The notes under the pieces: generated by a model
Seen by the model: the letters and a program-made list of their open reading frames with translations, nothing else
What the model was told of the DNA's origin: nothing
The model's database searches: none
Made by a program: the position numbers and the translations under genes
DNA from: Mayamaea pseudoterrestris
Lineage: Eukaryota
NCBI GenBank assembly: GCA_027923505.1
Contig: BROI01000004.1
Span: forward strand, 930,001 to 994,000
Direction of reading: 5' to 3'
DNA length: 64,000 nt
Part shown: piece after piece, positions 1,502 through 63,548 of the stretch
Numbering within the stretch: position 1 is the stretch's first letter
Layout: the number at the start of each line of letters is the position of its first letter

Positions 1502-3259
1502 TTACTCTTCATACTTGTCGTCGCCCTCCTCCTCTTCATTTTCTATTTGATATTCCATTGCCACGTCCCAACGCGAACTGGGCGCTTTTGCGCTTAAATA
1601 CTTGACAAACCGCAATGTTCCAGGATCTCGATAGACGATTGAAAGGGTATTAAAGCCAGCCGACACACTGAGAAGCTCCGTGTCATCGTCCTGGTTATAC
1701 TCATCAGCTGGAGTAGATCCTTGCCCATTCTCGTCCTCGTCATCTTCCGCTTCAATGTAACACTCAAATCCTCCCACGTCGCCCGATTGCCACGCCACAT
1801 CCGCTTCATCCAGCGGTGCACTTGTTTTCTTCACAGTGTCATTCTCATCACTCTCATCATTGTCGTCCATGACTTGCTGCTTGCCCGACCCAGCGACAAA
1901 GCATAGAGTCACATCCAGAACGGCCGATTCGGTGAGCAGACCATGGTGCGCCACAGTGTAGTCGAGCCCCGGCCGAAAACGACGAATATGCCCCTTGCAG
2001 GCAGTAGGACGCAAGCCAGTGAGAATGGAAAGGAACCTAGCAAAGGGTTTCGACTGAAGTAAATCGCGACGAATGTTATACAAGTTGTCGCCCAGTGTAT
2101 CGTTCTTCATAGCAGCAGTTGCGCTGCTACCTTCTCGGTCGTCAACAACTCGATGATACTCGAGAAATCGCTGCATATGCGTGGGACCAGTCATACTCCA
2201 GTTCTTGTCAACTCCTTGCTCGTAGTAATTAGCGTCCGTTGTCTTAAGTTTCGTCTCCTGCAAGTCAATCTTAAGAATCATCGCATCGTTCAGAAAGGAT
2301 CGTAGCTGAATGCTGGAATCTTCGGAAAAGGATGCTCGCATTTCCTTTAATGCTTTTGGTTGCAAATAAGTCGAGTCCATGAATTGAGCTAAGTGCAAAC
2401 GGTCGCTTTCGGAGAGTGCGGCATCATCGTTTTCAATGCCCACATTGTCAATCTCCAATGGTTCATAAGTTGACGATTGCGACAAGTCTGCTTCACCTTT
2501 TAGTCTCTGCAAAGTAGCATCATGTATATTGTCTGGAGGATCATTGGCATGGTACCATCCCTGCAGGCTCAATCTTGGACGATCTCCTAGGACTTCCTGT
2601 ACCGAGTGAAAGCTTACACCCGGTTCAACCGCAAAAAAGGCCATGCTATTGCGCGTCGGAAGCAGTAGTTTGCTTGGCACCATTGTCGGAAGACCATCAT
2701 TGTCGGCACTATATAGTTCCAATGCTCCTCCCTCTTCCAGCTTCCAATCAACATCCGTCAAGTATAATATGTAGCTGATTCTTCGCGTATGAATCACATC
2801 GTCGTGACAAAGCAAGTGACAGCCTGAAATGTGGCAGTTGCAAGCGCAGTCCACTTGCTGATTTAATGTATTTGGAGGTAGTCCAGATACTTGTTCGATA
2901 AAGTGCCGCCAGTCATTGCTATACAAGACTTGCCGCAGCTGAAGGACGCATGGCATGTGTGTGGACGAATTCTCGTCAAGGTTGGCCAAGTCAATGCTTT
3001 GATAAAACTTGAATAGATCAGACTCTTTGAAATTCACTTTGGAGTTTTGCTTTATTTCCTGTATCAGATCATTTATGAAGGACTCTTGAAAGACGTTTGG
3101 TAGGATGCAGTGAGGAAAAGGTTGCGCCAAAGCGTATTGTTCCGTGAAGGCCTGGCGGTCGTCCAGAATATGGCTAGAGACAACATCCTTTAGCAAAACT
3201 TCAATTTTGGAGCGCTTGGCTTTTGGATCTGATGCATTATTCCCATCCTCCGTCGTCAT
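1502..3259 (-). CDS. OGFOD1/TPA1-like 2OG-Fe(II) prolyl hydroxylase
   Basis: HLLCHDD iron motif, ISYILYL, GGALELY, SFHSVQEV..RLSLQGWY, then a degenerate second dioxygenase domain (RRFRPGLDYTVA, LSIVYRDPGTLRFVKYLS) as in Tpa1/Ofd1. Confidence 0.88.
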   Translation of the reverse strand: MTTEDGNNASDPKAKRSKIEVLLKDVVSSHILDDRQAFTEQYALAQPFPHCILPNVFQESFINDLIQEIKQNSKVNFKESDLFKFYQSIDLANLDENSSTHMPCVLQLRQVLYSNDWRHFIEQVSGLPPNTLNQQVDCACNCHISGCHLLCHDDVIHTRRISYILYLTDVDWKLEEGGALELYSADNDGLPTMVPSKLLLPTRNSMAFFAVEPGVSFHSVQEVLGDRPRLSLQGWYHANDPPDNIHDATLQRLKGEADLSQSSTYEPLEIDNVGIENDDAALSESDRLHLAQFMDSTYLQPKALKEMRASFSEDSSIQLRSFLNDAMILKIDLQETKLKTTDANYYEQGVDKNWSMTGPTHMQRFLEYHRVVDDREGSSATAAMKNDTLGDNLYNIRRDLLQSKPFARFLSILTGLRPTACKGHIRRFRPGLDYTVAHHGLLTESAVLDVTLCFVAGSGKQQVMDDNDESDENDTVKKTSAPLDEADVAWQSGDVGGFECYIEAEDDEDENGQGSTPADEYNQDDDTELLSVSAGFNTLSIVYRDPGTLRFVKYLSAKAPSSRWDVAMEYQIENEEEEGDDKYEE

Positions 3260-3575
3260 ATTGGTCGCTAATAGTTTCAAGAAGGATGGTTTGACAAACA
3301 GCAGAGGTGGGCTGTGATCTGTGATGGGCAGATTCTTCTTCGACGAGTCGGCGTTCCATTTTTGTTTGGATGAACGCGGCGCGATCAGGTTATGCTGCTT
3401 CGCGTATTAGCTACTTTACAATTCCCTTCTAGGAAACCGGCACCCCTCCACGTACACTGTTTTAAAACACATACAGTTCTACTGATGTGGTCTATTGATT
3501 ACGCTCTCTCTAAATTTTAACTAAAATGTGTGTGGCTTTTTCGCAGCATTGTGACGACGTGGAGCTTGTTTTAAC

Positions 3576-4829
3576 CTAGCTTGGCCCAATCATGTTCCAA
3601 AAGTTGGTCGTGTCCGACTCTGGCAGCTCGCAGGGATACAAGTACAGAAACTCTCCCTGCCGCGGATGATGTTGCTGTGTCACGCAATCGTTTGGGTATG
3701 GCTGGGCGCGCAACTCGAAGCGGTTGTTAAATTCAGCCACTCCATTCACTCCTCTCCAGTTTTGACTGGGATTGGACAAGTCACATGGCTCCACTGTCAC
3801 GCGCGCAAACCCATTGGCCTGCATGCAAAGGTCGGCATCTCGAAGTCGCAGTGAAAAGCTACCATCTGCCAAGTTCAAGTATTCCCAGTTGGTGGTCATG
3901 TCAGCGTCGCAATTCGTAACGTAGATGCCGCGACCGGACGCGCACTCTTGCTGGCTCGAGTCGCATCTCATGCACCTGACAATATATAAAAGGGTTAGAG
4001 AAAAGTTAGCAATGTCATCATACCCTTTCATCATTGACGTTCGGCAGCAATAGGTCAAATCCTTTTTCTCGTCAATGGCGACCTACCATTTTCTTTCAAA
4101 CGTTTCCTGCTGCCAGCGGTAACCTTCTTGCCAATACATTTTCAAAACGAATGGATCTGACACCGTGTAGTCAGCCTGGTTATTGTCGTCCATAATGTTG
4201 TCGTCGGCGTCGTCGGTCGTGTCGTCATTGGTGGCAGGAGGACCATCGTCGCCATCAACGTCATCGTTATTATAATAGTCGTCCGCTTCACCGACAGTGT
4301 CGCCGCTTGCACTACTGTATGAGGTGGAAATATAGTAGGTAACCGGCTTGTCTTCCTCCGCATAGTAATCCGGCAATGGTGCTTCCGTCGGTGCTTGTGT
4401 ATCCACGGAAACAACATTTACATTTACAGAAACAACGGCATTTGGGTCAACGCAGTAGTCGTAACCATACACGTCTTCTGTTCCACTGCATCCTGGCACT
4501 GGATCACCGGCGTTTCGCTGGAAGCAAATTAAGCCAGGCATGCATTCGGCGTCAAAGTCACAGTCGGCTTGGCACTCTTCAAGTGGAAAAACTCCGCCCT
4601 GGCCATTGTTGCCCATGTACGCAAGCACTGGTAGGGAAGCAACATTTGTAGTTGTAGATGCTGCAGCTGCAGCTGCAAATGTAGTCTGCAAAGATCGATG
4701 GCTATGGTCGTCCTGTCGTTGCAACGAAGAGGTGCGTGACGATGAAGGCGACGAAAGGAGCATCAAGACACCAGCCAAGGCAGCAAGGACACAGCCAAAT
4801 GCTAGAGCGACGACAGACGGACTTCTCAT
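3576..4829 (-). CDS. Frustulin-like cell-wall glycoprotein (acidic Cys-rich repeat plus Trp-rich/ricin-like C-terminal domain), 2 exons
   Basis: Hydrophobic N-terminus. ECQADCD..C..GLICFQR..PVPGC..DYC matches the frustulin ACR pattern. A GT-AG intron (4086-3976) joins LKMYWQEGYRWQQETFERKW to CMRC. Confidence 0.7.
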
Positions 4830-5205
4830 CGTGATTTTCCCTTATATGGTCTGATATAGTAAAAGGTTGGAGAAGGATTTGTGACGTGAAGAGTTGCCAA
4901 TTATTTTTAGAGATGCACACTGCGTTTCGCAGGTTCGATGTGTGCCGGCAAGCCAGCTGTCAACCGTCGCATGGTGCTCTAAGTAATTGAGCCAACGTCG
5001 ATTGTGCCGGTATCCGTGGGTTGCTTGTACCAATCAAAACGCTTTTTGAGTCACGGTTGTTTCTGTTGCAACTCATTTTTGAATTTGAATACGCGGGGCG
5101 GCACGCATTCTGCCACATTGCTTGTTGTTTCAGCAGTCTATTCGGGTCCATCCATTGGCTGATATCGCATCCATCCACTTGTTCCATTTCTCTCTCATTT
5201 TGACC

Positions 5206-6273
5206 ATGGCAAACACCACCAAAATCTTGATTGAAAAAGCTACAGCTCGCGTCTTTTGCCAGCAGCACGGTGCAGGCGGCAATCCCGTTACCATTTTTTC
5301 CAGTGCAACTGCAAAGCATGCTCTTTCATCAACGACCCAACAAACTCTGGCGCAAACGTGCGAGTGGGAATCTGTCATGCTTGATCGTCATCGACAAAGC
5401 ATGAACTTCTACATGCCAACGGGAGAAGAAGTTTCCTTTTGTGCGCATGCCGCTATGGGCGGCGCAGGTCGCATGATGCAGCAAATAAAATCTGCGCAAA
5501 GTGGTGACACGACAAGTACTGCCACAGGACATCGAGCATCGTCGCTGTCGTTTAGTGCCGAGTTGCAACCCAATCAACCCTACAAGGCATTTCTACACGA
5601 TCATGGTATTGTTTCGCTCGACATGGAGGTACCATTCATTGAGCAAAAGCTTCAGCACCCGCCGCAACTGCAGCGCATTCTTCGCGATGCCTTCCATCTT
5701 CAAGCACCAAACTTGCAGCAGCTTCGTTCCATTGCCGACAACTTTCAGTTTCCAACCTTTGTTAATGCATCCGTTGCTCGATTAAAGACGTTGGTCTATG
5801 TCAATGATCTTGATGTGTTACATGCAATTAAAGCACCGCCCGTGGGTGATGCCTTTCGCAACGCCTGCGACGCAGTAGAAAGCACTGGATTATATTTGTA
5901 TTCGCCGCTACAAGACAATGATCAAGACGAAGAAGGTGAATGTGTATTCGAATGTCGGCAATTTCCTCGAGCGTCAGGCTATCCCGAAGATCCAGCCACA
6001 GGAATTGCGGCGGCAGCCCTCGCTGTGAGTCTATATGAACGTGGAATGAAAAGGCCGTTTTACAAGTTTCATCAAGGCACTGCCATGAGTCAGCCGAGTT
6101 TGATCATGGTGGAAAACATCAGCAGAGTCGAGATGGAGTGCGGTCATACTAATGAGCAGACTGTAAATGCGAATGATTTGGACAATGTTGTTGAAACGAA
6201 ATTTCGATTCCGACTGACTGGCAAGGTTGAGTATGACAGTCGAGAAGAGATTGAGGTAGTGCTGGAGGAATAA
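5206..6273 (+). CDS. PhzF/PhzC-like (diaminopimelate-epimerase fold) protein
   Basis: Family motifs GGNP, EVSFCAHA, RQF and EDPATGIAAAAL, plus HQG..M..PS near the C-terminus. Confidence 0.85.
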   Translation: MANTTKILIEKATARVFCQQHGAGGNPVTIFSSATAKHALSSTTQQTLAQTCEWESVMLDRHRQSMNFYMPTGEEVSFCAHAAMGGAGRMMQQIKSAQSGDTTSTATGHRASSLSFSAELQPNQPYKAFLHDHGIVSLDMEVPFIEQKLQHPPQLQRILRDAFHLQAPNLQQLRSIADNFQFPTFVNASVARLKTLVYVNDLDVLHAIKAPPVGDAFRNACDAVESTGLYLYSPLQDNDQDEEGECVFECRQFPRASGYPEDPATGIAAAALAVSLYERGMKRPFYKFHQGTAMSQPSLIMVENISRVEMECGHTNEQTVNANDLDNVVETKFRFRLTGKVEYDSREEIEVVLEE

Positions 6274-53693: not shown

Positions 53694-56600
53694 TTATTGA
53701 ATCTCCTTGGGCTGTGTTAACTTTGAATTCGTAATGTTGGCAATCTTGTCATGCTCTTCTTTCTTATTGTGATGCGCCCAGCACGAAGCGTCCAAGTCAA
53801 AGGCATCGGCCATGATAGTCCCAGCGAGCGGATCCGTAATGTTTATTTCCACCAAATGATGCGACGGATGGTTCTTCACAAAGGCACGTATCATGTCCGT
53901 GTGCTCCTGGTAAATCTTTGCGAAAAAATCGCGTCGTTCGTCGCCATATCCAATGTCGGCGAGCGTAATGCTGCTATTCTTCGCCATGTACTCGTTCATC
54001 AGCCATCGCTTCATCATGAACCAGTGCATCACGGAATACGCCCATACTTGTGGCTCCCGGAGAGGAAGAACAAACGTTGCATCAGGATAATCGGAATGGA
54101 TCTTGTCGAGACTAAAATGTTGGGGCAAAAAGTGTGCGTAGGGCGCGTCGAGAGACCTGGTGCCGTTTTCAAAAAGCATTCCGATACGTTTGCGCTTGTC
54201 CCTGGGGCGCTCTCCGTCAATTTGCGCGAACACTTGATAGTCGCCACATCCTTCTAGCATCTTGTTGCCCTCCGCCATGTTCATGAGAATACACTCAGCC
54301 ATTGTACCCTTTTCGCAAGGCGGAGCGTCGCTCGTATCTCCATAGGCGCAGTAATGTTGGGTGACAACGTCAGAGCAAGTGAAGAAATTGTAGATGCTTG
54401 TGGTTCCAGATTTTGGATAACCGACGACAATGACTGGAAGCGATAATGGCAGCTTTTTCTTAAACTCAGCAACTGGCGCAGGAACGTCTTCAATCGACTC
54501 GGCATCGATAAATTTGCCCTGCGAGAGGGCGCCAACGACTCTATCGGCAATCTTGGCGTGCTCCTCCTTCTTGTTCTTGTGGCCCCAGCAAGTCTCGCTT
54601 AGCCCGAAAGCGTAGCTCATGATCTTGCTAGCATTTGGATCAGTAATGTTTACCTCGACAAGCTTGTGAGATGGATGCTTCTTGACAAATTCTCGAACGT
54701 TGCGTGAATGATCGTCGTAAACTTTCGCCAGGAACGCTCGCCGTTGATCGCCGTACCCAATCATATCAAACTCGAGACTGCTATTCTTGGACATGTACTC
54801 GTTGATGATCCATCGCTTCATCATGACTGGAAGCAATAGAAAAGAAGGAAAGCGTTGTCCTTAGCGCATCGTCAAAAGAACGCCAAACACAAAACTCGTA
54901 GAGCATGCATTACTTACACCAGTGCATGACCGAGTACGCCCACACCATTGGTTCTCGAAGAGGAAGAACGAAAGTTGCATCCGGGTAGTGCCTGTGAATG
55001 TCGTCCAAATTGAATACTTGTGGTAGAAAATGCGAAAATGGAGCTGCCAGCGACCAAGTATCATTTTCAAATCGCATGCCAAGACCAGGTTGCTTAGGCC
55101 GTTCTCCGTCAATTTGGGCATACACCTGATAATCTCCGCACTTGTCAAATAATGGTTTATTTTGTCCCATGTTGTTGATTATGCATGACGCCATCGTCCC
55201 TCGCTGGCAAGGCGGTGCATCATTAATTTCTCCATAGGCACAATAATGCTGAGCCACAACGTCCGAGCAGTTAAAGTAATTCCATATACTTGTCGTACCA
55301 GACTTCGGAAAGCCTACAACGATGACAGGCTCGGGCAGACTTAGCTTCGTTCGATGAACCATTCGCTCGGCCGCCAACTCGTCCTCTTTTTGTCGCTTTC
55401 GTTCCGCAGCCTTCATTTCACGCTCCACTGCCTTTGCAATGGCGAGTTCTCCAACCTTTGACAAATCAAGCTTCTTCAGCTTGGTCTTCTTCGGCACGTC
55501 CTCCTCCTCGGTTCGAGTTCCATTGGTTCCCCAACACGATGAATGCAGATTGAAAGAGCTGGCCAAAACCTTGCCGGCATTTGGATCGGAGGTGTTGACC
55601 ACAATTAACGTGCTTTCCTTATCTTTAAAGAAGTGCTGAACGTAGTCATTGTGCTCTTGATAAATTTTCATGAGAAAATCCTTTCGTGGCTTGCCATAAT
55701 CGGGAAATTGAATGCTGCTGTCGTGGAGCATATACTCGTTTATGATCCATCGCTTCATTGAAAAGAAGCCCAAAACTGATAAAGCCCACTCTTCTGCGTC
55801 CTTTACAGGTAGTAGGAAGGTGGCGTTGGCATTCTCTTGATGGAGTCGCTCCAGCAGGTGATGTTGCGGCAGAAAGTGTCCAAACGCAGCATCTTTGCGG
55901 TGGCTTCCATCGTTCATGAGCATGCCCAGCCCAGGCTGCTTTGGCCGCTCGCCATCAATTTGCACAAAGACTTGATAGTCGCCGCAGCCTTCAAGCATGG
56001 GGCGCTCGTCGGCCATGTTGTTGAGTATACATTCCGACATGGTACCCTTGTCGCACGGACTTGCGTCCGAAACATCGCCATAGGCGCAACGACGCTGTGT
56101 TGGCATGCCTTCGCACGTAAAGTACGCCCAAAGGTCGGCCAATCCACTCCGCGGATATCCAAGACTGATGATTGGTGACGCCAACTTGATTGGTTTCCAT
56201 CCATTCGCCTGCTGCTCTGCTGAAATCGTATCGACTGCTTTTGCTTTTGGAAATCTGACAAGTTTGTCATGCGACTCCTTCTTGTTGTGGTGCCCCCAGC
56301 ATTTGTCACTCAAGCCAAAAGATTTGCTCATGACACTACCAGCATTTGGATCGGTAAGGTTAACTTCGATGTACGCATGGCTAGGATGTGTGGCTACAAA
56401 ATCTCGAACAACTTGAGTATGCTCCACGTAAACGCGCTGCAAGAATGCATCCAAAAAGCCAGCTCGCTTGGCTGGAATGGTAATACTTGAATCGTGCGCC
56501 ATGTACTCATTCAAAATCCATCGTTTCATTTGAAACCAATGCATGACACTCTTGGCCCAATCGGCTGGATCACGCAGCGGAAGTATAAAGGTTGCTTCCG

Positions 56601-57678
56601 GATAGTCGTTGTGAATAACCTCTAAATTGAAATGCTGAGGCAAAAAGTGTCCAAAGGCAACATCCTTGATGCGCGTTCCATTCTCGTACAAGGTTCCCCA
56701 GCCTCGGCTCTTTGGTCGTTCGCCATCAATCTGAGCATATACTTGGTAGTTGCCGCAGCCGTCAAACATTCTGCGCCCTTCGGCCATGTTGTATAACACG
56801 CATTCAGCCATGCTGTATTGTGAATGATAAAGTTTGCCAAGCAAAGGCAGATTGTATGTTTGAACAAGGCGAGTCATGCGAAAGCACAAGTAAAGTGAAG
56901 GAGTAATGAATGTGAGAAACTTATTAATATCAGATCTCGCGACAAGCCTTTTCCGAAGATCATTTATTCAAACTCAAGTATGTCTCTCTCACTCAAAGAA
57001 TACAAGTCTATTTACTCACGTCGCTTTACTGCAGGGCGGCGCATCCTGCAAGTCGCCATAGGCGCAAAAATGCTGGGCGCGAACATTGCTGCAGTTAAAG
57101 TAGCTCCAAATGCTCGTCGTTCCAGACTTTGGAAAGCCAAGCACAATGACTGGAAGCTTTTGCGAAAGTTGCACCAACGACGAGGAATCGCTGTCTGTCA
57201 TGGCTTGACCAAAGTCTTGGTGGGCGAAGCGGCGAGCGACAGTGTTTGCTGCTGCGGATGCTGTCGACTGCTTGACGTTTCGTTGCTGCTTCTCTTTGCG
57301 TCCAGTTCGTGACTGCTGCCTCAAAAAAGCATCCTTGCTCGGAACTCCGCCACTACCGTCATGCATAAAGCTATTCAAGTAGTCCATGGCGTCTTGTGTC
57401 GAAGAGTGTTTGCGGCTGTTGCTTCGTCGGCTGCTATTTGAATAGAAAAGCACGATGGATCCAACGACACAGGCAAGCATGAGCGTTCGTAATCGAATAG
57501 CGAGACATTTTTGAATCATTCGTTGAATCAAGCCATGTGATCGAGCTTGTCCCTTGGAAGAAATACTGCTAGCATGATGTTGATGCTGATGTTGTTGATT
57601 GATTGTGCTTCCATTCGATGGATGACTCGAGGGCAGTTTCTTTCCACTGCCGCTTCCATTGCCTGCAAATCGCTGCAT
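53694..57678 (-). CDS. Type II membrane protein with four tandem P-loop sulfotransferase-like domains, 3 exons
   Basis: Four units of G[FY]P[KR]SG..C.YGD..PC..GCG.YQV..QIDGERP..HFLPQ..ATF.LP..W..S..KRW..CW. Introns 57019-56813 and 54917-54827 preserve the frame. Confidence 0.8.
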
Positions 57679-57812
57679 GATACAATAGATTAGAGTCTTA
57701 TTTGTTCCTGTTAGTCTATGATGACTATGAAGAAGTGGAGTGGACGACAGGGATTTGATTGCAGGCACGTCGGCCGCTCGAAAAGGAATTGGAATCTCAT
57801 GGTCATTCTCGA

Positions 57813-57992
57813 GAACAAAAACTAAATATCCAGCCACAGATTCTTCCGCTTACTACACAAAGACGGCGATTGCTAAAACTTGGGTAGCTATGTGTAGCAA
57901 CCCAAGCACCCCCGCTGGGCTAGCAGAGCAGGTCCAGATCCGCGCCAAAGGGCGGGATGCTTGCCAGCTGCAGTGTGCTGCTGCTGAACCCA
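57813..57992. repeat. Split direct repeat B2 (180 bp)
   Basis: Matches 58212-58391; I found one mismatch (ggtcc vs gggcc). Confidence 0.95.
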
Positions 57993-58211
57993 GGGATGGG
58001 CTAGGGTGGGAACTTTAATCTATCTTACAGTCCTCGAACAAGAGCTTCGAGGCAAACAGACCAAGAGAATGACAAGCAAGCAAAGATTGCGAAGCAATCC
58101 TTGGAGAGGACCCATGACCTCTGGAAACCAATGCGCCAATGCCGTCATCCGATGACGTCACCATTGGCCAATCAAATCACCGCTTTCCTCCGGCTCTCCA
58201 GAATCCCACAT
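57993..58211 (-). repeat. Putative A2 repeat of the retrotransposon
   Basis: Inferred from its position between B1 and B2. It has several CCAAT motifs and TGACGTCA (58153-58160). The A1 partner is expected beyond 64000. Confidence 0.55.
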
Positions 58212-58391
58212 GAACAAAAACTAAATATCCAGCCACAGATTCTTCCGCTTACTACACAAAGACGGCGATTGCTAAAACTTGGGTAGCTATGTGTAGCAAC
58301 CCAAGCACCCCCGCTGGGCTAGCAGAGCAGGGCCAGATCCGCGCCAAAGGGCGGGATGCTTGCCAGCTGCAGTGTGCTGCTGCTGAACCCA
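58212..58391. repeat. Split direct repeat B1 (180 bp)
   Basis: Copy of 57813-57992, beginning about 30 bp after the YR stop codon. Confidence 0.95.
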
Positions 58392-58422
58392 TGAAGGAAA
58401 TGCAAGGAGGCCGCGCCAGGAG

Positions 58423-60165
58423 CTAAGCGCCCCAGGCTTTGCGTAGTCCAGAGGAAGAGGAATGCCTGTAGCCCGTAAATGGAACGGTGGTGGACACTGG
58501 CGAAGGACTGGTGGACTGGAGGTTGTTGTTGTGGTTGTTGTTGGTGGGAGTCGTGGAAGGTTGAAAGCGAGTAGCGCTAATGGTGTTGAAGTTGGTGACA
58601 GTGAGCATCTTCTTGGAGACGCCGGCTGAGAATAGATCAACTTGTTTGCGTATGTATTCCATAAAGGCTTCACTGCGCCAGCGGCCTTGTAGCTGAATGG
58701 TTGTAATAGGGACGCCCGACATGTACATTGCCATGGCGGCAGAGGCGCGTATAGAATGGAGGCCAATCGTGTCAACTGATAAACCAATGGACTCGGGATT
58801 GTTAAAGCTGATAAAATCGCGTAGAAAGGCGAGCGCCATCTTGGTATGGAGAGCAGCAAGCTTGCCGTCGTCTGCCTCGTAATAGTAGAAGTAGTCGTCA
58901 TCCTCACTCATGAGTCCCTTGTCAATAGCAGGTATGCAACAGAAAGTAGTATCACTATGCCGTTAAAAGTAGCGCACCTCGGAATCGAACCAAGGATAAC
59001 CGGCTATATCACCTCTAAACACGCTGCTACTTTTCCGTCTGCTAGTGTACTATATGCTGCATACAAGGCACCATGCACTATGACAAGTAAAGGTATCGCT
59101 CTGGTTGCTGTTTTTCGTGTGCAACCTGCTACTCCCCTAGCTTTGCGCGTCATAGTGCTAACTCGTCTTCCGTTTCAGCTGGCATTTTCGTCTCGCGGGG
59201 GAATGTCACTTTTCAGTTTTTCCTGCGGCGTTTCGGGCTCGGCGCATCTTTGTGCACTCCCCAGGGTCCGCGACTCCCCATCGTTCGTTCGTGACAAACC
59301 CGTGCAACCAGTGAATTTTTGCTTTTTCTTCGCTTGATTCGATCGCAACTCGAACCAGCAGCCTCAGTCCAGATCTCTCGATAGGGACGCTACCATAGCA
59401 GGTATGCAACAGAAAGTTTGCAAAGCGGTAAAAGTGCGCATGTGCTACTTTTCGTCTGCTAGTGTACTATATGCTGCAACAGGCACCACGGGGCAGAAGC
59501 GGGATTGCTGCATCGAAGAGATCGCCAGAGCTATGAGTTGTAACGCTATCATCCTTTACTTGATTCTTTTGCGCTCGAAAGACGAGAGACACCGAATTGG
59601 AAAGATGGAGCGAAGGGGAAGAGTGTGACACGAGCACGCCGTCTTTCCAGAACCGCGTATCGCAAACTCGAATAGGAAGAGTCCTTCTTTCAACTTTGTC
59701 TCCTTTATGGATCTTGAGGTATTCACAAGAGCGAAGAGCAAAGAAGAAAGCGAGCGTAATGATCCTTTGAAAGTGACGGTAGCCAGCGGAGGTGGCTTTC
59801 TCGGCGGCCATCTTCATGAGCAACGCCAACGGAATCGCCTGTTGATGCCCCGTGGTAGGATCCTCGTTATTATAGCCGCGAAACAAGCGTGCTAACACTG
59901 GGAGAGTCTCTCCTTGCGCGTTGTGACGGGGATCGGGATAACCAGCGGCCGTAAAGGCCTTAGCCACACCTCCGACGGTGGTAGAGACAGATCCGGCCAC
60001 CAAGGTACTTGGTCCTTTAACTGGCTTTGAATAGTCGCCTCGACGGACGGATTGAACAAAGGCGATAAAGAGATGCGCTCTGTCCGTTGGCGTGCCGTCG
60101 ACGAGGAATGGATCGTGCTGGAGACCAACTCGTTCAAGGAAGAGCAACCAGCGTTTCCAAGCCAT
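58423..60165 (-). pseudogene. Tyrosine recombinase, interrupted by a non-coding insertion
   Basis: The N-half has FFFALRSCEY and RAQKN. The C-half has HSIRASAA..GRWRSEAFMEYIR, completing the R-K-H-R-W-Y set. The halves are in the same frame but separated by about 555 bp containing stops. Confidence 0.88.
58925..59488. mobile_element. Putative nested non-autonomous element bounded by degenerate direct repeats
   Basis: Units 58925-59073 and 59395-59488 share a 23-bp identical block and a ~47-bp near-identical block. There is no convincing ORF between them. Confidence 0.6.
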
Positions 60166-63100
60166 GTCTTCTCGAACATGAGTGGCGCGTGTGACTCCAA
60201 CAAACTCGGATTTAGATGCATCAACGAGGAGAGAGCGGACAAAATCTTGTTGGGCAGGGGTCGCATCGTGAAGGATGCCGGTACCTGCAGCGCCAGAGAT
60301 GAAGAGAGGATGAGCTGGGTGAGAGACTCATCTGAGCTGGATGTATCGCGTGATATAAGATCAGGTACGACGTTATCCAGTCCCATCTTCCATTGCGAGT
60401 AGAAGCAGATGCCTTGGTGCGAGCAAATAGCGGAGAGGAGTCGTGCCAACAAAAGAGTTTGCGGCGTTGACGTTTCATCCGAAAAATTCGACCGACGCAT
60501 CCATCCTGCTGCAGTAGTGTTATCGCCAATAGCGAGAACGCAATCGCCTCGTTTCAATCGGCCTTCTGCCACGGCGAGCCAAATGCCGCAGACGGGGCCG
60601 AGGAACTCGAGAAAGTTTATATGATGCGCTGGCGACCCTTGTGGCACTGGCAGACGCCAGCCAAAACCACCGGGCATATCGTGTCCTCCAACCTGAGCCA
60701 AGCAGGCGTCTGTAGGAACGATGAGGTCAGGGTAGCGAGGAACGAGTAGATTGATATCAATGCCGTCGCGGGCGACGGAAAGAAAGCGTAAACATTCCGT
60801 CAAATCCTGGCGCTCCGCCCGAGTTAATCGCGTGCTTTTGCGATGCTTGCCAGTTGTTGCCTCAGCGCGAGATTTGGCTGAGTGTATACGGCCAAGGAAA
60901 GGTCGCATTTCAGTGACAACCACAGCAACGTGGACGAGTCGTCCGTAGAGCGTGGCGAGGATTGCTGCCGCAACTGAATAGCCTTGACGATCCAGGAGGA
61001 GCTGAATATCCTCTGAATAGATGCGATACTTGTCCTGCGGTAGGCGAATGATAAGAGTGCGCGAATCAACCTCCCATCCAAGGATTACTTGAGTCTCCGT
61101 TAAACACCCTTCTGCAATGAGCTTGGAGACTGCAATTAAAGCGTTTCGCGGTAGAGGTTCGTCCGCTCGCAACGGTCGACCCATCACATCAAGCATCAAA
61201 GGAATAGCATGAGCACCACGAAGAACGGCGTCGTCACTAGTATGAACAATGAGCCCCAGATGATCGTCAAGGAAGACGTCAAAGAAAGGAAGACCGTCGA
61301 CTGGAATGAGATGCTTGACCGTGGTTTGTCGAGCAATAGCGAACGGCGTGGAGGCATCGGAATACACGACTGGATTGGTGTCAATGTGTGCAATAAATTG
61401 CGACTGAACCAAAGCAGGATCCCAAGACTGGTCTCTAACCAAATGGTTGGCTGCGTCTGTAACTGTCTCTGATAGATCACTGAAAATTGTAGGGCAGGGA
61501 GACCCGCCAAACGTCATTCTCAGAGCTAAAAGCGCCAGCGTGGAGTCAGTCGTGATGCCTTTGGTTGTGGTTGCCGCTTGGACAAGTGTTTCGAGGCCAA
61601 AATGACAGTTTTTGTAGGCCGACTTCCAGTCATACTTGGGTAAATAAATAGGAAGCTGGATGTAAATCAATCTGGTTGCAATGAGGCGATTCAATAGACG
61701 TTGTAGAGCAAATCCGTAGAAGACGGGTGGTAATTCATCCTCCCGGACTCGCTTGTTGACAGAGGTGCCGGCGTGCCGTTGACAGAACGTTTGATCGTGC
61801 GTAATTCGACCGGCTTCCTTGCGGGATCCATCAGCTTGTAGCTTGAGTTGTTTGACATATCCAAATGGAGCAGCAGCTACATTAGCAAGCTGGTGTAAAG
61901 CGTCGACTGGCAACGGGAGATGCCAGCCTTTTGCCGTTTCCTCTTGGAGAGTTTCGAGTACCGCTGCGCGTTCCTTGGTGGCCGACTTGTGGTTTCCGTA
62001 CTCGATGATTGCGTCCAATTCTTCCTTGCGCGTTGCCTCATCAATAGGATACAATGGAAAGGAGGCTCCAGTTGTAAGAGTTTGGCGAACACGAAGCCAG
62101 CGCGGGTGGCCGTGAAAGAGCGGATCGAGGAGCTCAATCGGGCGGAAATTGGAGCCAGGGCAAGTCGGCAAATCCTTGTTGGAGAAGAGCAAATGGCGCA
62201 AGTCCATGTTATTGGCGGAAAGGACGGCCAAGTTATGGTTAGCAGCATCGTCCGTTAACTCAAAGCGAAAGAATGACGGAATCAAAGGAGGAGGCGACCA
62301 TTGAAGAGCGCGTTGAAGGGATTGAAACCAAGACGACTCGACGGCTGGCCAAGGAGCTGGAGCGTAATCGAGGCCAGGATCCATTACTTCAAATGGAATG
62401 GAGAGCTCATCGGTTGGTGTAGCGTCGAGGTGAAAGGCGATGGAGGATGGTGGGTTGGCGATGGTGATGGCGTCGTAAAGGGTAGGTTGCTCGACTGACG
62501 GAGGGACAGACGGAGCTGTAGAAGAAGAAGGAGGAATTGAATCTGAAGATGGTTGGCAGTGGAGCGCTTGAAAAGTGTTCCAGAAGAGGGATGGAGGCTT
62601 GGAAGAAGGACTGGATAAAGGATGCTCTGGCGACGCCAGAGGCAACTTACTCAAATCGTTGTCAATCTTGTCTTGACTCAAATGGAGAGACATTGGATGA
62701 CGGTAATTGGAGCGTGAACGGGGAGGATCCCCTTCCGTTGGATCCAGTATGGGTTTCTCAGGTGGCGCTGATGGAGGAACGAGGCGTTCCCACAAAGGCG
62801 TTCCTCGTGGCTTGAAAGACTGAAGTAACAAGGAGCCACGTGGCTGCGAAGAAGAAGGAGGAGAGCCTCCAAAGGGTAGAGGAGAGCCTCTGCGGCCAGT
62901 TAGAGAGCCAACTGGATTTGGGAGTAAATTCCCGGAAGGAAGAGGAGAGCCTCTTGAACCAAGCAGAGAGCTACCTGGGGTTGGAGGAGAGCCTCCGGGG
63001 TTGAGCAGAGAGCCGCTCGATGGAGGAGAGCCTCCGGATCCAAGTGGAGAGCCACTTGGTAATGGAGGAGAGCCTCCTAGTTGATTTAAAATCGCTCCAC

Positions 63101-63548
63101 GTGGAAGACGGCGAGTTGGAACATAAAGAGGCTCCAAAGGCGCAGTGTCGCTCTCAGGGATTGGGGATCCCGTCATGACGCGAAAACTGGCTTTGGAGCG
63201 CCCTCCAGTGCTCCGTCTGCTATCTCCAGTGAAAGAAGAAACCTCCGCAGGACACGCGAGTGTTGTGTCGGTTGCCATTATAGATGTTAATGGCGAGTTG
63301 CGGGGACGGTTTGTAGTTGATGATGTGCTGCGCACCGATGTCGCTAGAGAAGTCGTTGCGGTTTCGAGTTGTTGGCGAAAGACTTGCAATTGATTATGAA
63401 GAGGCGCAAGATCGAGGTTTGTAGGAGTCACTAGCCTACTCGTAGCGTTTAAAGAAGCATTGGAACTGGACGCTACTAAGTTAGACGAGTCATAACTAGT
63501 AGGAGGTCCTCCAACGTGGATTCCCGCCGGCCACGTGGAGGAGGCGAC
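59892..63548 (-). CDS. pol: Pol: reverse transcriptase plus RNase H (frame open from the gag stop codon)
   Basis: RITHD, KYDWKSAY, MTFGGSPCP, FLDD and ILGWEVDS, then RNase H TDAC, HINFLE, GDNTTA and NVVPDLISR. Confidence 0.93.
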   Translation of the reverse strand, partial: VASSTWPAGIHVGGPPTSYDSSNLVASSSNASLNATSRLVTPTNLDLAPLHNQLQVFRQQLETATTSLATSVRSTSSTTNRPRNSPLTSIMATDTTLACPAEVSSFTGDSRRSTGGRSKASFRVMTGSPIPESDTAPLEPLYVPTRRLPRGAILNQLGGSPPLPSGSPLGSGGSPPSSGSLLNPGGSPPTPGSSLLGSRGSPLPSGNLLPNPVGSLTGRRGSPLPFGGSPPSSSQPRGSLLLQSFKPRGTPLWERLVPPSAPPEKPILDPTEGDPPRSRSNYRHPMSLHLSQDKIDNDLSKLPLASPEHPLSSPSSKPPSLFWNTFQALHCQPSSDSIPPSSSTAPSVPPSVEQPTLYDAITIANPPSSIAFHLDATPTDELSIPFEVMDPGLDYAPAPWPAVESSWFQSLQRALQWSPPPLIPSFFRFELTDDAANHNLAVLSANNMDLRHLLFSNKDLPTCPGSNFRPIELLDPLFHGHPRWLRVRQTLTTGASFPLYPIDEATRKEELDAIIEYGNHKSATKERAAVLETLQEETAKGWHLPLPVDALHQLANVAAAPFGYVKQLKLQADGSRKEAGRITHDQTFCQRHAGTSVNKRVREDELPPVFYGFALQRLLNRLIATRLIYIQLPIYLPKYDWKSAYKNCHFGLETLVQAATTTKGITTDSTLALLALRMTFGGSPCPTIFSDLSETVTDAANHLVRDQSWDPALVQSQFIAHIDTNPVVYSDASTPFAIARQTTVKHLIPVDGLPFFDVFLDDHLGLIVHTSDDAVLRGAHAIPLMLDVMGRPLRADEPLPRNALIAVSKLIAEGCLTETQVILGWEVDSRTLIIRLPQDKYRIYSEDIQLLLDRQGYSVAAAILATLYGRLVHVAVVVTEMRPFLGRIHSAKSRAEATTGKHRKSTRLTRAERQDLTECLRFLSVARDGIDINLLVPRYPDLIVPTDACLAQVGGHDMPGGFGWRLPVPQGSPAHHINFLEFLGPVCGIWLAVAEGRLKRGDCVLAIGDNTTAAGWMRRSNFSDETSTPQTLLLARLLSAICSHQGICFYSQWKMGLDNVVPDLISRDTSSSDESLTQLILSSSLALQVPASFTMRPLPNKILSALSSLMHLNPSLLESHAPLMFEKTWLGNAGCSSLNELVSSTIHSSSTARQRTERISLSPLFNPSVEATIQSQLKDQVPWWPDLSLPPSEVWLRPLRPLVIPIPVTTRKERLSQC
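62855..63080 (-). repeat. Imperfect coding repeats (GGAGAGCCTC core; GSPP/GSPL peptides) in the N-terminal part of pol
   Basis: ggagagcctc or close variants recur at least seven times. Confidence 0.75.

Follow-up and report, generated by a model that had tools for sequence, protein, structure and literature searches.

Several described systems come close to the DNA segment that splits the tyrosine recombinase (YR) gene of a retrotransposon in the diatom Mayamaea pseudoterrestris. Satellite-type tandem repeats have units of a few hundred base pairs that close head to tail, reach roughly 100-fold abundance, exist as variants and insert at microhomology without target duplication; pieces longer than one unit are occasionally captured at breaks, via extrachromosomal circles or array fragments. 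Diatom mitogenomes, in the portions of the published descriptions used here, typically contain one large species-specific tandem-repeat region whose neighbour is trnQ or a fragment of a tRNA(UUG) gene. Such regions bear hairpins and show high depth, and the same portions describe 75-bp double-hairpin arrays in T. pseudonana, elements A-E in P. tricornutum and blocks of 345-943 bp in F. solaris. Retrozymes and small circular-RNA retroelements are non-coding, span a few hundred nucleotides, occur in head-to-tail or circular forms and carry repeats at both ends of their genomic copies. Helitrons, Replitrons, IS200/IS605 ends and attC sites have an imperfect hairpin near an end and terminal direct repeats, and read-through copies of more than one unit are possible; for Replitrons, the part of the source used here describes a hairpin at the right end, 'fuzzy' ends and terminal direct repeats that are short.

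We analysed the locus within a 64-kb stretch of forward-strand sequence (64,000 nucleotides, hereafter the window). With a probability that we put at about 0.55, the insert was captured from a 470-bp non-coding head-to-tail repeat that has roughly 100 times the abundance of single-copy nuclear DNA; it amounts to about 1.2 units of that repeat, and its arrival would have inactivated the YR gene. We found no description of the repeat in the literature, and the part of the M. pseudoterrestris genome paper available to us, supplementary repeat table aside, is silent on it. For diatom genomics, the result points to a 470-bp repeat family that had not been described and is very abundant in this species, with an unusual hairpin-plus-tRNA-like module. 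Its candidate homes are a nuclear array, an rDNA-type spacer, a mitochondrial repeat region or a free circle. The data do not establish a new type of mobile cassette.

The host retrotransposon and its split YR gene

The host element is a Ngaro-like retrotransposon on the minus strand of the window. Its RT/RNase H ORF (59892-63548, minus strand) had no match in Pfam, NCBIfam or PDB sequences. The reverse transcriptase family, missed by Pfam, is revealed only by structure prediction: the AF2 model of residues 480-1100 (pLDDT 89.3) retrieved with Foldseek the RTs of MMLV, foamy virus, CaMV, Ty3 and HIV (E 6e-12 to 1e-8), and the ORF is predicted to encode an enzyme of this kind. Because the end of the RT ORF overlaps the start of YR, there is no space for a methyltransferase domain. 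The retrotransposon tail, 3' of YR (57813-58391, minus strand), contains two 180-nt direct repeats (57813-57992 and 58212-58391, 99%). Co-oriented RT/RNase H and YR, the lack of room for a methyltransferase and direct repeats 3' of YR are all features of Ngaro/PAT-type elements (DIRS order); unlike those elements, this one has an RT that is invisible to Pfam. The 5' repeat A1 would lie beyond the window edge.

The YR gene is split by 564 bp of non-coding DNA (58925-59488). Its N-terminal part (59489-60327, minus strand; ORF 60327-59467) contains the Arg of ALRSCEY and the Lys of FRAQKNQ. Its C-terminal part (58423-58924, minus strand; ORF 58962-58423) contains HSIR, GRW and the catalytic-Tyr region EYIRKQ, and matched PF00589 with an E value of 0.012, below the cut-off. 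An earlier, sequence-only reading of this DNA had described two YR halves in the same frame with an interruption between them. Both ORFs were confirmed, in one frame, and each half aligns with the uninterrupted homologue P0001, at 58% over 214 aa (E 3e-89) and at 49% over 126 aa (E 2e-40). There were 2314 relatives; in metagenome contigs, 68 pattern matches for YR relatives yielded 0 confirmed ones.

The interruption itself is not clean. The conserved YR motif FCPVV (codons at 59484-59498, minus strand), of which CPV is present in 24 of the 30 homologues among those listed, reads in frame +1 with respect to the YR ORF upstream of it. It is separated from the SGD codons by 22 nt (59499-59520, minus strand), compared with 6 nt in homologues, and these 16 extra nucleotides before FCPVV produce the frameshift. 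No template for the 22-nt filler was found within the window. After FCPVV, about 10-12 YR codons are missing by comparison with 31 homologues.

The insert holds about 1.2 units of a 470-bp repeat

From contig depth and closure, 58925-59394 (minus strand) is a complete 470-bp unit of an abundant head-to-tail repeat. It consists of L (58925-59073, minus strand), a module of 149 nt that forms an imperfect hairpin and has a tRNA-like apex, and the unit body U (59074-59394, minus strand), 321 nt of non-coding DNA with a GC content of 52.6%. The remainder, S (59395-59488, minus strand), is the start of a second unit, and its alignment with L shows a degenerate version of that module that is 55 nt shorter and has an altered 3' arm. 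The two related direct-repeat units of the sequence-only reading were real as relatives, with 59395-59417 (minus strand) identical to 58925-58947 at 23 of 23 positions and 59025-59073 matching 59443-59488 at 93.9% identity over 49 columns (E 1.5e-12). Their arrangement around a unique sequence had to be redrawn, as the window holds about 1.2 units of the repeat and what looked like two 'flanking hairpin units' is the stretch in which its head-to-tail order overlaps. The insert appears to be flanked by direct repeats because a piece longer than one unit carries this 23-nt overlap. More generally, what seems to be a 'cassette flanked by hairpin repeats' can arise where a piece of a tandem or circular repeat is longer than one unit and so overlaps itself.

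Within the 64-kb window there were no other copies of 58900-59500, and similarity to the rest of the host element, the 180-nt tail repeats included, was at chance level only (at most 20 nt). TRF made no call on the 1.2 copies. The GC content of the unit is 50.2% and that of the nuclear window 49.8%. No open frame runs around the unit, and its translation found no relatives among 5.8 billion proteins. A YR-family profile found nothing on the unit, with six-frame scores of 0 or below.

Abundance and closure of the unit in public-run contigs

Summed contig depth, which the tool itself warns is not equal to copy number, placed 58925-59417 at 50-400 times the flanking host DNA and 10-100 times the retrotransposon in contigs from public runs. 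Across 58968-59423, depth was 11,280-49,610 in run X1 and 2,277-5,293 in run X2, compared with 110 and 40, respectively, for the host flank 57600-57713 and about 210-650 and 57-174 for the retrotransposon. For U alone, the X1 depth was 11,000-35,000 and the X2 depth about 5,300. The high depth ends at 58925 and 59417. The S-specific bin (59424-59537) had a depth of 33 in X1, 9.4 in X2 and 0 in both X4 and X6; S is specific to this locus and present at single-copy depth.

In general terms the earlier view is supported: the segment is foreign, repeated, non-coding DNA, highly multi-copy, and it is not a local duplication of YR sequence. The further suggestion of a parasite of Ngaro elements gained no support: the unit resembles no other part of the element within the window, it is 10-100 times deeper than the element, and the YR profile finds nothing on it.

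Two contigs of 500 nt, a length equal to 470 + 30 (470 + k-1), bear on the order of the unit. In X6, the contig leads from 58925 back to 59394 (going back 470, with 23 shared letters and 0 differences), and the X4 contig spans 58925-59414 with 0 differences; these two runs may contain the same organism at a low level and would then not be independent. Because 58925 is closed onto 59394, 58925-59394 is one head-to-tail unit, tandem or circular. As a de Bruijn cycle, it looks the same for an array and for a circle, and many L-U-L elements with pruned flanks would be a residual source of it. By summed contig depth, the X2 bins across the unit were 4008, 5265, 5293 and 2277, so that L and U were about equal (4008 against 5265-5293), a ratio that agrees with a tandem or circular arrangement but not with L-U-L. 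By the same measure, L was 3-4 times deeper than U in X1. The most abundant X2 piece was a single 206-nt contig covering L and the next 58 nt (58926-59131, depth 3938).

The contigs also show 58925 preceded by two or more other sequences, and 59072/59131 followed by three or more. A conserved 207-bp module is joined in them to different bodies, pointing to a modular family. The excess of L in X1 and the varied neighbours are also the pattern of a dispersed element with a conserved end, and this observation speaks against capture.

Other copies of the retrotransposon appear to lack the insert. One X2 contig, at a depth of 59.5, follows 58723-58926 with 2 differences before it diverges from the window. 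A joint from 58926 to 59520 is present in X1 and X2 contigs, and the similarity of a paralogue stops at 59520. Both observations are consistent with insert-free copies of the element, although the exact empty-site letters did not appear in the contigs. None of the contigs displayed spans the junction between L and YR. No match to a 25-nt core of the unit turned up in viral, metagenome and prokaryote-genome collections.

Folding and the tRNA-like core

For the L hairpin folded as DNA, z was -1.95 for the minus strand, with 10 of 200 shuffles doing as well, and -1.72 for the plus strand, with 11 of 200. The three stems that the sequence-only reading had named in the long unit were reproduced, but the fold is only modestly better than that of shuffles. 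The short unit, which it had also drawn as a hairpin, folds no better than chance (z -1.06 and -0.25, with 25 and 80 of 200 shuffles as good), and the 3' arm of S has lost its pairing with the middle stem. For the whole unit, linear or circular, z was about -1 to -2 (circular fold, -1.9 and -0.9). Rfam returned chance-level matches only (for example 16.4 bits against a gathering score of 88), with no match to a tRNA model and no ribozyme family at E <= 10. The structured-RNA module that had been offered as one explanation gained no support.

The tRNA-like core (58970-59033, minus strand) has an acceptor-like stem with one bulge and a T-arm-like hairpin with GGTTCGATTCC (58981-58991); after the core comes the single TTTT that this strand of the unit contains. 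ARAGORN reported nothing for it at default settings; it took the relaxed -ps80 setting to call the core, as a pseudo-tRNA whose anticodon has 4 bases. A tRNA gene or tRNA-derived SINE was considered and rejected: a B-box-like 11-mer is present, but there is no A box, no A-rich tail and no cloverleaf at defaults, the A and B boxes being judged by what we take to be their consensus.

CUGANGA, presumably the hammerhead core, is absent from both strands of the unit dimer. The CRESS nonamer, in the form that we assume for it, is absent from the unit; the closest stretch, TAGTATCAC (58947-58955, plus strand), matches at 8 of 9 positions and lies within a stem, with about 0.1 such matches expected by chance. 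The unit differs from retrozymes and small circular-RNA retroelements in having no self-cleaving motif (hammerhead or other) and no rod-like fold, and it is known here from DNA alone.

Junctions and a proposed route of capture

At the insert borders there is no target-site duplication, and the flanks share only 1-2 nt. The last 5 nt of the FCPVV codons overlap the first letters of the repeat, a microhomology of TGGTG, or up to 7 nt with CC, and the other junction shares AT, giving 2-7 nt of junction microhomology overall. This microhomology, the lack of duplication, the missing codons and the extra nucleotides fit capture by end joining or template switching.

Under such capture, the repeat would occur elsewhere in the organism in head-to-tail form, whether arrayed in tandem or closed into a circle, and a piece of it would have entered the YR gene of one Ngaro-like copy by a route that needs no transposase. 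This could have been end joining at a break, or a polymerase or RT switching template onto a multimeric or circular molecule and back, and either route would use a few bases of microhomology. The event would have removed about 10-12 YR codons and left the 16 extra bases, while the duplicated part of the unit would stem from the piece exceeding one unit. The insert would then have no function in the retrotransposon, its recombinase being simply inactivated, and for annotation it would mark this copy as dead. We infer both the capture mechanism and a home for the repeat that is either nuclear (satellite or spacer) or mitochondrial.

The locus departs from satellite-type repeats in its modular family, in which the 207-bp module meets several bodies, and in the long hairpin with its tRNA-like apex; the array itself was not directly seen. 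Also counting against capture, S differs from L beyond a deletion, while U and L are identical to the consensus, and this would mean that the donor carried a rare variant or that the event was error-prone.

Other origins of the insert

A mitochondrial source is possible, though we consider it unlikely. In that case the insert would be a NUMT, with the 470-bp repeat being a mitochondrial tandem-repeat region captured by the same mechanism, and it would offer a datable NUMT inside a mobile element. The hairpin module, the tRNA-like fragment, the modular variants, the depth of about 100-fold and the NHEJ-like junctions all resemble the repeat regions of diatom mitogenomes. However, the GC content of the unit is nuclear-like, compared with about 28% in the Fistulifera solaris mitogenome as given in the part of that source used here. 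The S-specific sequence also stands at nuclear single-copy depth.

Somewhat less probable, and rather doubtful in our judgement, is a self-mobile, non-autonomous element ending in the hairpin module, whether rolling-circle (Helitron- or Replitron-like), TRIM-like or an integrating small circle. Rolling-circle read-through past the end would yield a more-than-unit copy with terminal direct repeats, and one crossover within the 23-nt identity, bringing together an L+U circle and an S already in place, would give the exact order L-U-S (plus strand). The joining of the conserved 207-bp module to different bodies and the position of the insert within another mobile element also favour such an origin. 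On the other side, the single-copy depth of the S-specific sequence indicates that S-U-L is not the propagated form, L and U stand at about 1:1 in X2, and no other copies lie in 64 kb of gene-dense DNA. No Pfam transposase, HUH, Rep or recombinase domain was found in the 32 ORFs scanned of the 35 window ORFs of 220 aa or more. Unlike Helitrons, Replitrons, IS200/IS605 ends and attC sites, the insert has no Rep, HUH or integrase partner found in the window, a degenerate second hairpin, no defined target (neither A^T nor RG) and an inserted form that is not the abundant one. An attC- or IS200-like single-stranded cassette had been among the first suggestions; the poor folding of S, the closed L+U form, the empty domain scan and the lack of a target or duplication all speak against it.

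Known families of short elements, a match to which had been named as a competing outcome, were also tried. A MITE was rejected, as the insert ends are direct repeats, the inverted repeats are internal to L and target-site duplication is absent. A TRIM or LTR-type element was rejected as well: the repeats differ by 55 nt and the 3' arm, TG..CA ends and a 5-bp duplication are lacking, and L is not preceded by a polypurine tract. Under the PBS motif rule that we assume, inspection by eye gave a single PBS-like feature, the 8-nt TGGTAGCG that follows the repeat.

More speculatively, and improbable in our view, the 470-nt unit could be a small autonomous-looking replicon or a rolling-circle or circular DNA or RNA element, non-coding and with no known ribozyme. 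Its 207-nt module (long hairpin, tRNA-like acceptor/T-arm minihelix and the strand's only T-run) would then serve as a replication or priming signal, and it would enter genomes, retrotransposon RNA or cDNA included, as more-than-unit copies by template switching. If the repeat were a circle, it would represent a new small replicon.

It is very improbable that a long-read assembler mis-patched a repeat read into the retrotransposon. The repeat is very abundant and the assembly is Nanopore-based, according to the portion of its description available, but the S-specific sequence occurs in short contigs of two runs at the depths given above; these runs may include the window's own sample. A spliceosomal intron or introner, spliced out so that the recombinase stays functional, has next to no likelihood: the YR halves share one frame, 564 is a multiple of three and introners are known in stramenopile algae (from the part of that literature used here), but by a hand check the GT sites before the in-frame TAG (59489, 59486 and 59480) have no frame-keeping AG partner before or just inside the C-terminal half, the conserved FCPVV codons fit the frame of neither half, about 10-12 codons have been lost, and the repeat is head to tail, far above the abundance expected of a genic introner, with no other copies among more than 30 window genes.

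An origin of the hairpin arms from YR coding sequence, suggested by echoes such as 'ADGKVAAC' and 'RHSDTTFC', was rejected as chance. The best single match was equalled by 237 of 1000 shuffles, and at the DNA level the arms had no similarity to the window's own YR. Protein Smith-Waterman comparisons were mostly non-significant, the best being the 3' arm against P0002 (11 of 2000 shuffles; 1243 of 2000 against P0001). In a post hoc test, the clustering of echoes near the break was equalled by 10 of 1000 and 2 of 1000 shuffles. The TAGCAG/CTGCTA pairs and the 534-bp removal that keeps the frame are as first described.

The insert is part of an abundant head-to-tail repeat

The best reading of the 564-bp insert in the tyrosine recombinase (YR) gene (58925-59488, read on the minus strand) is that a fragment of an abundant head-to-tail repeat, longer than one unit, has been captured in a retrotransposon gene and inactivates it. 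We compared Logan contigs from four public sequencing runs (X1, X2, X4 and X6) with positions 57600-61000; X4 and X6 possibly hold just traces of the same organism, and the best runs may include the assembly's own sample. Summed contig depth is not copy number, as the tool itself warns; by this measure the host flank reached ~110 in X1 and ~40 in X2, divided between two haplotypes, the retroelement ~210-650 and ~57-174, and 58968-59423 a depth of 11,280-49,610 and 2,277-5,293, respectively. A single X2 contig spanning 58926-59131 had a depth of 3938. The high-depth block starts at 58925 and ends at 59417, and the bin 59424-59537, which holds the letters specific to the short end unit (S, 59395-59488) and the YR junction, had depths of 33, 9.4, 0 and 0 across the four runs.

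One X6 contig of exactly 500 nt runs from 59131 to 58925 and then from 59394 to 59102, a step back of 470 with 23 letters in common. X4 gave a separate 500-nt contig over 58925-59414, and both have zero differences from the window. A length of 500 (470 + 30) is what a cycle leaves in a graph with k=31 (k being deduced from the overlap). By these cyclic contigs, in which 58925 joins 59394, the interval 58925-59394 is one unit of a repeat that closes head to tail on itself, either as tandem arrays or as circles. The window thus holds one 470-bp unit, made up of the long end unit (L, 58925-59073) and the body (U, 59074-59394), and then 94 nt that begin a second unit of aberrant sequence. Similar depths of L and U in X2 argue against an L-U-L element, for which 2:1 would be expected. 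L together with the adjoining 58 nt was 3-4 times deeper than the remainder of the unit in X1. The repeat family is modular, given that loose contig ends carry two or more other sequences before 58925 and three or more after 59072/59131. No prior description of the 470-bp repeat was found in the literature searched, including main-text passages of the M. pseudoterrestris genome paper.

The sequence-only reading had described two YR pieces in one frame, separated by related hairpin units, and this observation was largely right. The pieces do share a frame, and each matches one half of an uninterrupted homologue. The end units are true direct repeats (23/23 identical positions and 46/49 columns). 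The fold drawn for L was reproduced on either strand, although its energy is only ~2 sd better than that of dinucleotide shuffles (10 and 11 of 200, one count per strand, fold equally well). S keeps the 5' arm of L, but its 3' arm differs, so that the middle stem is lost and not compensated, and it folds no better than shuffles (25/200 and 80/200 equally good). Folding the complete insert, one 470-nt unit or that unit as a circle gave z-scores from -0.8 to -2.7, with nothing viroid-like.

Junctions and proposed capture of the insert

On the minus strand the insert starts with TGGTGCC and finishes with CTGCTAT. The YR motif FCPVV, of which CPV is conserved in 24 of the 30 homologues displayed, is encoded at 59498-59484 (minus strand), and the last five bases of its codons are the first five of the repeat. 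Its frame is +1 relative to the upstream YR ORF: SGD and FCPVV are spaced by 22 nt (59499-59520) vs 6 nt in homologues, and the 16 extra bases shift the frame just upstream of the insert. They have no template within the window and may be filler that arose with the insertion, or a separate lesion. The C-terminal half restarts at IDKG, 10-12 residues past the FCPVV position in homologues; two bases (AT) are common to both sides of this downstream junction, and the insert has no target-site duplication. In X1 and X2 a diverged paralogue joins 58926 to 59520, the intervening sequence being unread, and an X2 contig is 99% identical to 58723-58926 and thereafter diverges from the window. Both are consistent with insert-free copies of the element.

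Microhomology, filler and a small deletion without duplication are typical of end joining or of copy-choice template switching and are not what a transposase leaves behind. The insert may have been captured by either route without a transposase and, because the captured piece exceeds one unit, the donor would have been multimeric or circular. Alternatively, an L+U circle might have recombined with a pre-existing S by one crossover inside the 23-nt identity; the product, L-U-S, would have the order observed.

Identity and home of the repeat

Nothing in the unit resembles the retroelement, which speaks against the earlier suggestion of a Ngaro parasite, and the other mechanistic readings (a YR/HUH-mobilised cassette or a structured-RNA module) likewise lack support. 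No protein relatives of the unit were found, an Rfam search gave chance-level matches only, and a hammerhead core, A box and CRESS nonamer are absent from it. An intron was rejected by hand check, as no GT-AG pair restores the frame, and an echo of YR peptide in the hairpin arms failed profile and shuffle controls. ARAGORN found no tRNA at default settings and a pseudo-tRNA at a relaxed threshold only. The L apex, however, carries a perfect B-box/T-loop 11-mer, the sole one in 64 kb (~0.1 expected by chance per window), within an acceptor-like stem that is followed by the strand's sole TTTT. From this combination, the apex is likely a degenerate tRNA-derived piece, not a tRNA gene. The minus strand of the unit has one T-run of 4, just after this tRNA-like core, and the plus strand has seven; plus-strand AT skew falls to -0.57 within 59100-59249.

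The repeat may reside in a nuclear satellite or spacer, as its GC content (50.2%) matches that of the window (49.8%), which is nuclear DNA. It may instead belong to a mitochondrial repeat region. Diatom mitogenomes typically have one large, species-specific tandem-repeat block next to trnQ or a tRNA(UUG) fragment; in T. pseudonana it contains hairpin elements, and in Fistulifera solaris, a related species, blocks of 345-943 bp. Such tandem repeats offer a precedent, and the ~100-fold depth of the unit also fits, but the GC content speaks against this home, as the F. solaris mitogenome has ~28% GC. Finally, the repeat may be a free circle or rolling-circle element, with a parallel in Replitrons, whose copies show direct repeats at the termini, a hairpin at the right end and ends extended by read-through. 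However, S-U-L is the inserted form, not the abundant one, and no Rep/HUH protein, transposase or integrase was found among the 32 of 35 window ORFs of at least 220 aa that were scanned.

The host retroelement and its neighborhood

The retroelement occupies the minus strand between 64000 and ~57813. In order, it comprises a Gag-like ORF that the edge of the window truncates, a 1218-aa ORF (63548-59892), the split YR gene (60327-59467 and 58962-58423) and, downstream, two 180-nt direct repeats that are 99% identical (57813-57992 and 58212-58391). The 1218-aa ORF had zero matches in Pfam, NCBIfam and PDB sequences, as did its 19 relatives (33-81% identical). An AlphaFold (AF2) model of residues 480-1100, built with 19 sequences as input (pLDDT 89.3), retrieved retroviral, Ty3 and caulimovirus reverse transcriptases with Foldseek (E 6e-12 to 1e-8). 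The model clearly predicts a retroviral-type RT, from a divergent family to which profile libraries are blind. For the YR, 2314 relatives were found at E <= 0.001, and it shows the Arg, Lys, HxxR, GRW and Tyr regions expected of such a recombinase. Measured against the Ngaro definition in the literature, the layout fits, with RT/RH and YR, no methyltransferase space and direct repeats 3' of YR; the 5' repeat would lie beyond the window.

Toward its N terminus the RT ORF has a repetitive stretch rich in Gly, Ser and Pro, encoded by imperfect 21/39/42-nt repeats (GAGGAGAGCCTC…) at 62856-63077 (minus strand). P0010, a 72%-identical paralogue from the same genome, is annotated as an RT-YR fusion that stops a few residues past its own CP motif (…YFSCPCALLLVR); the end of this model (last 35 residues) lies near the site where the window's YR copy is broken.

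Gene density in the window is high, with ordinary host domains among the scanned ORFs. The large ORF beside the insert is 100% identical to a protein recorded by NCBI for the diatom Mayamaea pseudoterrestris, and of eight host ORFs four have exact database entries, on a 1.27-Mb contig. Sulfotransferase-like domains (PF17784/PF13469) are repeated in three neighboring ORFs (53694-57849, minus strand) directly downstream of the retroelement tail. In two runs the host flank at 57687-57762 was present as two haplotypes of about equal depth with seven differing sites and one indel, in agreement with a heterozygous diploid genome as reported.
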